Source: a virus
Taxonomy: Duplodnaviria; Heunggongvirae; Uroviricota; Caudoviricetes
Reading direction: 5' to 3' (one strand)
DNA length: 64,000 bases
Virus record (IMG/VR): IMGVR_UViG_2939521961_000009
The position numbers were made by a program, and so were the translations under genes. Numbering within the stretch: the first letter of the stretch is position 1; every line of letters begins with the position of its first letter. Positions 24,565 through 26,058 of the stretch are shown here, one piece after another. A model generated the notes under the pieces. The model was not told the DNA's origin and ran no database searches. It saw only the letters and a list, made by a program, of their open reading frames with translations.

Positions 24565-25965
24565 TTATTCTTCGGACTGGTCGTCGGTGTGCTGCGGCTC
24601 CTGTCGTTTCGTTGCGGCACTACTGCCTCCTTTATCACTGGCCGGATCGGTATCAAATACCAGATCCAGCTTGCGGTTTTCATCAATTTCGGCCTTGCGC
24701 CGACGTTTGACATCATCCGGATTACGACCACCAGCACGTACCCAGTCTGATTCTGTCGCCGCTCCACCACGAATCTGGATTTTCCAGGCCTCAGCCTCCT
24801 TAACAGGGTCAATCCACGGCATCACTGGTCCGGAATACACCGCGGTATACAGTGAAGAACGGTCAAGATCGCGGGGTAGCCTGATAACACCGGATGCCAC
24901 AGCCTGTTTCAGCCATGCACGATACATCGGGCGGGTGACGGCACCAATAAACCAGTCCTGCAGGATCAGGTAGCCATCAGTGGATTCAACCAGCTCCTGA
25001 CGCTGGGCGCTGTAAGTGCCGTTATAGTTGCGCGCTGTACTGGAAAAACTCAGACGACTGCCCGCCGCCACGGCACGCAACTGACCATTACGAAAAGTTT
25101 CAAGGTTAGGATTGGGGCGATCCGACTTCACCATTCCGATTTCTTCGCCGGGTTTCAGATCGTCGTAAATAATGCCCGGCTGAATGGTAAGCTCACGTTC
25201 ATTCTCCTTTCTGCCATTACCATCCGGTTCATAGCTCTGCCCGTCGCCTTTCCGGATGTACATCCCCAGAGCAGCGGCGATCCTTGCTGCAGTCAGCTCA
25301 GAATCTTCATATTCTTTCAGGGCACTGAGGCGGATCAGCACACCGGACAACAAAGACGTCCCGCGCATCTGGTGCAGACGGCGAACAAATTTAAGATGCA
25401 GCATTCGCTCTGCATCCACTTCTTTGGTTTCCATCTGCCGTCCGGATACGGGACGGCTTTTATACACCAGATATTTTTCGGGACGCCCCCAGTCATCAAC
25501 AAACACGCCCTGATTCAGCCTGTTGCTCTCATCACTAGTCATGGGAATAAAGTCCGGCTCGAGCGCCTCCAGCCAGAAATGAACACCGGCAGAAGGCGCC
25601 AGGCTGTTTATGCGCCCGGAAACCATCTGGGCAAACACCTCACCATCGCGCAGCCAGGTACGAAGCATCAGACGTTCCAGCATCGGACGGGTAAACTGCC
25701 CGGTGACTTCCGGGCTGACAGACCATTCACTCCATCGGGTGCGAATCTCCGCAGCCAGGTCACGGGCAATGGCCCCATTGCGTAATACCGGATGTGGCTC
25801 GACAATAATCCCGTTTTTCCCCACCACCCGTTCTTCCAGCTTGTCAAATACACCAATAACCAGATCGTGGTTGTTATCAAGGTAACGGGCCTGCTCACGT
25901 AACGACACGGCCCCGTACTGGCTTAACTGGTATAGCGCGGCGATTTTTTTGATACCGATTTGCAT
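24565..25965 (-). CDS. Portal protein, 466 aa; 5' end may be altered by the adjacent Mu-like prophage end
   Basis: Size and position upstream of protease-capsid gene; no clear Shine-Dalgarno before the ATG. Confidence 0.75.
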   Translation of the reverse strand: MQIGIKKIAALYQLSQYGAVSLREQARYLDNNHDLVIGVFDKLEERVVGKNGIIVEPHPVLRNGAIARDLAAEIRTRWSEWSVSPEVTGQFTRPMLERLMLRTWLRDGEVFAQMVSGRINSLAPSAGVHFWLEALEPDFIPMTSDESNRLNQGVFVDDWGRPEKYLVYKSRPVSGRQMETKEVDAERMLHLKFVRRLHQMRGTSLLSGVLIRLSALKEYEDSELTAARIAAALGMYIRKGDGQSYEPDGNGRKENERELTIQPGIIYDDLKPGEEIGMVKSDRPNPNLETFRNGQLRAVAAGSRLSFSSTARNYNGTYSAQRQELVESTDGYLILQDWFIGAVTRPMYRAWLKQAVASGVIRLPRDLDRSSLYTAVYSGPVMPWIDPVKEAEAWKIQIRGGAATESDWVRAGGRNPDDVKRRRKAEIDENRKLDLVFDTDPASDKGGSSAATKRQEPQHTDDQSEE

Positions 25966-26058
25966 TTCATTTGATACCGCTGAAAAACGCCGATACGCAA
26001 CTTATTTGATACTAAATCGGCGCTTTTCTTTTGAGTTTTAGAATGAGTTTTTAAGCGC

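Follow-up and report, generated by a model that had tools for sequence, protein, structure and literature searches.

The right end of a Mu-like prophage lies within the portal gene of a lambdoid prophage in Escherichia coli

Results

The portal gene fragment at the junction of two prophages

The stretch of DNA investigated here, referred to as the window, is 64,000 nucleotides long (IMG/VR record IMGVR_UViG_2939521961_000009, a virus of the Caudoviricetes) and was matched by megablast to the chromosome of Escherichia coli strain War (NZ_CP074717.1). Two prophages meet in it. Positions 1-25930 carry the head and tail genes of a lambdoid prophage on the minus strand, and a Mu-like prophage, likewise on the minus strand, extends from 25931 past the end of the window. 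Across the junction runs an open reading frame (ORF) of 466 codons (24565-25965, minus strand), with its ATG at 25963-25965 and a frame that stays open upstream to a stop at 26002-26004. An earlier note on this DNA had described the ORF as a portal gene with an unclear N-terminus next to a Mu-like end. The open frame and the involvement of a Mu-like end were both confirmed, and the exact transposon end, which the note held to be impossible to fix from this sequence, was placed at a single base once further copies of the element were compared.

The part of the ORF at 24565-25930 (minus strand) comprises codons 49-502 of the portal gene of the lambdoid prophage, a gene of the lambda family, and is its C-terminal fragment. 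The intact portal protein of strain E2865 has 502 amino acids, and residues 13-466 of the window ORF were identical to its residues 49-502 in 454 of 454 positions. The match to the Pfam portal profile PF05136 was confined to positions 20-354 of 354, the first 19 positions, and with them the N-terminal segment, being missing. Alignment to an intact homologue, which had been proposed as a check, thus revealed that N-terminal residues are missing: portal residues 1-48 are absent from the ORF. The portal N-terminus is not lost; codons 1-48 are located beyond the left end of the Mu-like prophage, 38.8 kb away and outside the window. In agreement with this arrangement, the Prokaryotic Genome Annotation Pipeline (PGAP) lists the portal as two pseudogene pieces to either side of the prophage; the piece in the window lacks its N-terminus and has its boundary at 25929.

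Exact ends of the Mu-like prophage

A megablast search with positions 25700-26300 found the whole query covered in one genome only, that of strain War. Many other genomes matched the query only from about base 231 onwards, and the left flank was different in each of them. Ten junctions from other genomes were read directly and gave, together with that of War, eleven copies in eleven different flanks (dprA, comR, terB-like, bcsA, sbmA, etk, yeaW, the tauB side, melA, siiEA and portal). The common sequence started at TATAGCGCGG in all of them, and the base preceding TATAGCGCGGCG varied among the copies, being G, A or T. Because differently flanked copies all start their common sequence at TATAGCGCGGCG, the right terminus of the Mu-like prophage is position 25931. 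The right end (attR) of this Sp18-like prophage occupies 25931-26030 (plus strand) and reads inward from the terminus as 5'-TATAGCGCGGCG. The junction is accordingly found at 25930/25931, which is 35 bp inside the portal ORF and not to the right of the ATG. The right-end sequence was 97-100% identical to copies at many loci in many E. coli genomes, O157:H7 strains included, and the feature annotated as 'inserted Mu-like phage' in the GenBank record LC727881.1 starts at the same base as the terminus determined here. Right termini at a TG, either at 25928 or at 25961 beside the second of the repeats described below, were ruled out by the multi-copy comparison.

The left end in strain War lies about 770 bp outside the window, at position 3329 of the fetched flanking sequence L001. 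In six left ends the common sequence ran up to ...CACCTGGTTACA (...GGTTACA) and was divergent after it; a left terminus at ...GATTCA was also considered and was ruled out by the same kind of comparison. The terminal base was thus fixed across unrelated sites in eleven right and six left ends. The left end finishes in the canonical ...TTACA-3', corresponding to a 5'-TG left terminus. The right terminus begins with 5'-TATAGCG in 11 of 11 E. coli copies and the transferred strand there ends in TA-3', and hence the 5'-TG...CA-3' arrangement of Mu-type elements was not present at both ends. With the left end found, the two termini could be compared, as the earlier note had advised: read directly from both sequences, they form an imperfect terminal inverted repeat, with matches at about 20 of the 28 outermost bases. 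The right end of the Yersinia phage vB_YpM_5 also appears to finish in TA, its terminus having been set by anchoring in a single circularised record.

Removal of the prophage together with one CTGG, by which the window up to 25930 is joined to L001 from position 3334, gave a sequence identical in 588 of 588 positions to the uninterrupted portal genes of many E. coli genomes. The right-end copy of this target-site duplication is located at 25927-25930 and the second copy outside the window, at L001 3330-3333. The duplications found were AACG in melA, GGTG in siiEA, TATG in etk and CTGG in portal; those in melA and siiEA are unambiguously 4 bp long, and those in portal and etk are compatible with this length. 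The empty sites of the melA and etk insertions, like that of the portal, were rebuilt without gaps at 100% identity, and the depositors of LC727881.1 annotate a 4-bp 'duplication due to insertion'. A direct duplication therefore flanks the element, but its length is not the 5 bp that is exact for Mu. A 5-bp duplication, obtained by shifting either terminus by one base, fits portal and etk by coincidence only and fails for melA and siiEA, and models that let the element take one flanking base with it fail as well.

Mu-type elements cause adjacent deletions and inversions, and the portal N-terminus could have been lost by deletion or rearrangement beside the Mu-like end, for instance by a Mu-mediated adjacent deletion. 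Such a course of events would have a parallel in the copy of the Mu-like phage on plasmid p8479-1, the flanks of which do not match. In the portal gene, however, the 48 codons in question were recovered directly beyond the left end and the empty site was restored without a gap, and the probability of this alternative is virtually negligible. In the copy on p8479-1 (167 kb, NZ_CP074995.1), a yeaW fragment is found at the right end and the thiosulfate reductase/ydhX side at the left, and these flanks are unrelated and without a matching duplication. Since the duplication does not match at its two ends, a rearrangement during or after transposition is suggested for this plasmid copy.

The chimeric open reading frame

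Since the right terminus is 25931, the ATG, the first 12 codons of the ORF and both decamer repeats described below consist of Mu-like DNA. The Mu-like part of the chimeric ORF, 25931-25965 (minus strand), encodes MQIGIKKIAAL and the first two bases of the following Y codon, within which the junction falls, and in this manner the first 12 residues (MQIGIKKIAALY) stem from the end of the Mu-like prophage. The ATG at 25965 is a fortuitous in-frame start in Mu-like DNA and not the native portal start, as the earlier note had suspected. The minus strand upstream reads ...CAGCGGTATCAAATGAA-ATG, and here too the note was correct in that a purine-rich Shine-Dalgarno sequence was not found before the ATG.

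The ATG at 25965 might nevertheless be used, giving an altered portal with 12 new residues in the place of 48 that still works or has acquired a new role. The two parts are fused in frame, with 466 codons uninterrupted by a stop, and mom, the last gene of the Mu-like prophage, is transcribed toward the ORF, which makes read-through conceivable. On the other hand, no Shine-Dalgarno sequence is visible, a promoter scan of 25700-26900 detected no sigma-70-like promoter, and a stable hairpin ending in U5 is situated between mom and the ATG. The protein also lacks the N-terminal segment of the Pfam profile and is a pseudogene according to PGAP. The War portal junction was present in 1 of 5,426 complete genomes, and for that reason nothing points to selection for the chimeric ORF. 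A functional altered portal is consequently regarded as most unlikely. The chimeric ORF is better described as a presumed pseudogene from which no working protein would be expressed. The insertion most likely inactivates head assembly of the lambdoid prophage, which would be unable to build heads alone if no functional portal is made from the fragment.

Subterminal repeats at both ends

The decamer TTTGATACCG was found on the plus strand at 25948-25957 and 25970-25979, 22 bp apart from start to start, at exactly the positions reported earlier. These copies had been described as lying upstream of the ATG; on the coding (minus) strand this is true of the copy at 25970, but the copy at 25948 is inside the ORF. 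A third copy, TTTGATACTA, starts at 26005, and a repeat search assigned the three copies, spaced by 22 and 35 bp, to a single family, GCnnTTnnTTTGATAC. The 8-mer TTTGATAC was present in 9 copies in the window, compared to 1.54 expected, and 0 of 100 shuffles reached 9. Three of these nine copies are gathered within 65 bp at the right end. On both strands of the 38,839-bp prophage, TTTGATAC was counted eight times; six of these copies are at most 175 bp away from a terminus and are without exception directed inward. Numbered from the respective terminus, the first bases of the cores are 18, 40 and 75 on the right and 18, 113 and 165 on the left, and each end thus carries several subterminal repeats which are inverted relative to those of the other.

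The core of the proposed site R1, TTTGATACCG at 25948-25957 (plus strand), spans bases 18-27 of the right end, and the same core is found, facing inward, at left-end bases 18-27. It was kept in the JNE082796 copy and in vB_YpM_5. The core of the proposed site R2, the second TTTGATACCG at 25970-25979 (plus strand, bases 40-49), follows 22 bp from R1, and that of the proposed site R3, TTTGATACTA at 26005-26014 (plus strand, bases 75-84), follows R2 with an offset of 35 bp that is kept in vB_YpM_5. The sequence between the cores has diverged in the Yersinia phage; its right-end cores retain both the 22- and the 35-bp offset, and in its left end a terminal core is accompanied by two internal ones.

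By their position, orientation and conservation, the three right-end repeats are most likely binding sites R1, R2 and R3 for the 696-amino-acid DDE transposase of the phage, as far as can be judged from sequence. The gene for this transposase is located at 61267-63357 (minus strand), with the Pfam domains Mu-transpos_C and HTH_Tnp_Mu_1, and a MuB-like ATPase is encoded at 60263-61195 (minus strand), with Phage-MuB_C and AAA_22. The prophage therefore has, by Pfam, a DDE transposase with Mu-specific domains as well as an ATPase of the MuB type. The transposase had 94% identity to its counterpart from the Mu-like phage in LC727881.1 and 78% identity to the one encoded by vB_YpM_5.

A hairpin downstream of mom

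The segment TGAAAAACGCCGATACG at 25981-25997 had previously been pointed out as loosely resembling the end-binding sites of Mu, and it does have the 9-mer GAAAAACGC in common with Mu R1. In Mu, however, this 9-mer is located at bases 14-22, whereas TGAAAAACGCCGATACG occupies bases 51-67 of the right end. The segment is changed to TGAAAAGCGCCGATAAG in the 96%-identical copy of LC727881.1 and is absent from vB_YpM_5, and the blastn similarity to Mu covers mom only, breaking off inside this gene around 26098, with none in the end itself. Furthermore, TGAAAAACGCCGATACG forms the left-hand arm of an inverted repeat of 13 bp that brackets R3 (25982-25994 and 26016-26028, minus strand; 92% complementarity in the repeat search). 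It is therefore very unlikely that TGAAAAACGCCGATACG is a Mu-type end-binding site following the MuA consensus, and the TTTGATAC repeats are the conserved candidates.

For the inverted repeat at 25982-26028, folding of the mom-sense strand gave a hairpin with an energy of -23.6 kcal/mol (z = -3.2) that ends in U5, and the hairpin was kept, despite base changes, in the 96%-identical JNE copy (z = -4.0). It was missed by the terminator scan owing to the limit on loop length, the loop being 21 nucleotides long, and was picked up by the repeat search and folding. The hairpin is likely to function as the terminator of mom, and in that case transcription running on into the portal fragment would be limited as well. 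The mom gene itself, the last one of the Mu-like prophage, is located at 26059-26796 (minus strand; Pfam PF25680, Mom, E = 8.5e-77) and is by blastn approximately 71% identical in nucleotide sequence to its counterparts in Mu and D108.

Other features of the two prophages

Just outside the window, the flank continues with the remainder of the lambdoid prophage, in which terminase genes are followed by lysis and cold-shock genes bearing Qin-prophage names (rrrQ, rzpQ, essD, cspI and cspB). The length of the Mu-like prophage is close to the 38.76 kb of Sp18 of O157 Sakai (PMC7430833). Between window positions 26300 and 63900 the coordinate offset to NZ_CP074717.1 shifts by 1 from one end of the prophage to the other, and because of this difference there seems to be a 1-bp indel between the window and the War chromosome somewhere within the Mu-like prophage. 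A frameshifted hypothetical gene was marked by PGAP at approximately 27065-27527 of the window. At 63650-63790, between a ner-like gene and a divergent repressor gene, many short ATCGAT/ATCGAA-like repeats were observed, and these may serve the Mu-like prophage as operator or enhancer sites.

Discussion

It is highly probable that the 38.8-kb Mu-like prophage, which is of the Sp18 type, has its right terminus at 25931, that it inserted at codon 48/49 of the portal gene in the lambdoid prophage of strain War and duplicated CTGG, that TTTGATACCG and TTTGATACTA are its end repeats, and that the ATG at 25965 is there by chance. The termini are fixed, the duplication is 4 bp, the portal gene is cleanly split, the transposase and ATPase genes form a pair of the Mu type, and the repeats are symmetric and conserved. 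The insertion may be depicted as follows: The transposase would bind six end sites, three per end, and pair the ends into a transpososome. It would then nick the 3' ends, after ...ACA on the left and after ...ATA on the other strand on the right, and the cut 3' ends would be joined to target phosphates 4 bp apart. Repair of the resulting gaps could then give rise to the CTGG duplication.

In Mu, R1 and R2 span bases 6-27 and 28-49 and are 22 bp apart. The CGAAA cores of Mu are found at 22 and 44 in the right end, with a third, inverted one at 57, and at 22, 127 and 167 in the left end. The prophage described here resembles Mu in having three subterminal repeats per end, with an adjacent right-end pair 22 bp apart that ends at bases 27 and 49, and in a left end where a terminal site is followed by two others 100-170 bp inside. 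The position of mom as the last gene before the end, the MuA/MuB-type gene pair and the near-random insertion with a short duplication are further similarities. It differs from Mu in the core sequence, which is TTTGATACYG here and ...RCGAAAR in the Mu consensus, and in the direction of the right-end cores, all of which point the same way here, whereas R3 of Mu is inverted. The transposase is only distantly related to MuA, and there is no nucleotide similarity in the end.

Some of the observations weigh against the reading of a Mu-type insertion by a transposase acting on these repeats. The core sites do not fit the 22-bp consensus of Mu, YGTTTCAYTNNAARYRCGAAAR. In the transposase, Pfam recognised the Mu C-terminal and enhancer-binding (HTH_Tnp_Mu_1) domains only and detected no Mu end-binding domain, and the phmmer matches to the transposase in the PDB were retroviral integrase cores, with no MuA chain among them. 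The termini of vB_YpM_5 were set by anchoring on the first core, and of its agreement with the present ends the relative spacings alone count as independent evidence. Finally, the right terminus is 5'-TA here and TG in Mu, and the duplication is 4 bp here and 5 bp in Mu, so that in their details the chemistry and geometry deviate from those of Mu.

The unfamiliar core sequence and the unrecognised end-binding domain would also suit a different role for the TTTGATAC repeats, either in another end function, as sites for a host factor or for a packaging or regulatory protein, or as relics of duplication. Against such a role stands the occurrence of the same core 17 bp from both termini, in inverted orientation, with three copies per end in a Mu-like layout. 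The spacing is moreover conserved in a diverged relative although the neighbouring sequence has changed, which is the standard signature of transposase end sites. The packaging site of Mu is found in the left end only, and a packaging role is for this reason a poor fit for a symmetric motif. These other origins of the repeats are thus considered improbable, and binding of the transposase to the repeats is the preferred interpretation.

In type, the prophage is the same as Sp18 of the E. coli O157:H7 strain Sakai and as the well-known Sp18-like phages in Shiga toxin-producing strains of E. coli. Published work on the Sp18-like phages describes them as intact and as being packaged (PMC2669165), places them at loci specific to the strain (PMC7430833) and reports that they frequently reside inside other prophages, Stx phages among them (PMC10132054). 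The present insertion differs from these in its location in the lambdoid portal gene of War, a junction of the rarity given above. The Mu-like phages within the Stx phage genomes LC727881.1 and LC727895.1, the former inside an Stx2c phage, have ends that are 96% identical and start with the same first base, TATAGCGCGG, but reside in another host prophage with GATG as the target in the place of CTGG. In strain 10153 (NZ_AP027191.1), the left end of a copy is within a different prophage portal gene and at a different position, and other matches to the Mu-like phage adjoin terminase, head-completion and tape-measure genes. From these locations it follows that the Mu-like phage has repeatedly inserted into resident prophages. 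More distantly, the Yersinia phages vB_YpM_5 and vB_YpM_6 (Muvirus) encode a transposase that is 78% identical and have the same TTTGATAC spacing in the right end and a similar left layout, but the sequence between the cores is diverged. The searchable literature yielded no description of the end-site layout, the 4-bp duplication or the TA terminus for Mu-like phages, and the ends are not described in the Yersinia phage paper.

The insertion is an ordinary event of a known Sp18-type phage, which has now been mapped exactly; both portal halves had already been flagged by PGAP. On balance, the data favour somewhat the notion that Sp18-type phages use a variant transposition geometry, with asymmetric termini, the TTTGATACYG core, a 4-bp stagger and Mu-like C-terminal and enhancer domains but a different end-recognition region. 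The sequence observations behind this notion are firm. Whether this variant geometry is new is uncertain, as the 4-bp duplication is already present in a GenBank annotation, and the existence of a distinct transpososome is likewise uncertain. For annotation, the finding means that the 466-codon 'portal' ORF is a chimeric pseudogene which takes its start codon from the Mu-like prophage. The base-exact termini and the candidate transposase sites of a phage that is widespread in pathogenic E. coli would help in the automatic delimiting of its insertions. The 4-bp duplication and the TA terminus are small differences from Mu which may be used for studying the target stagger in Mu-type transpososomes.
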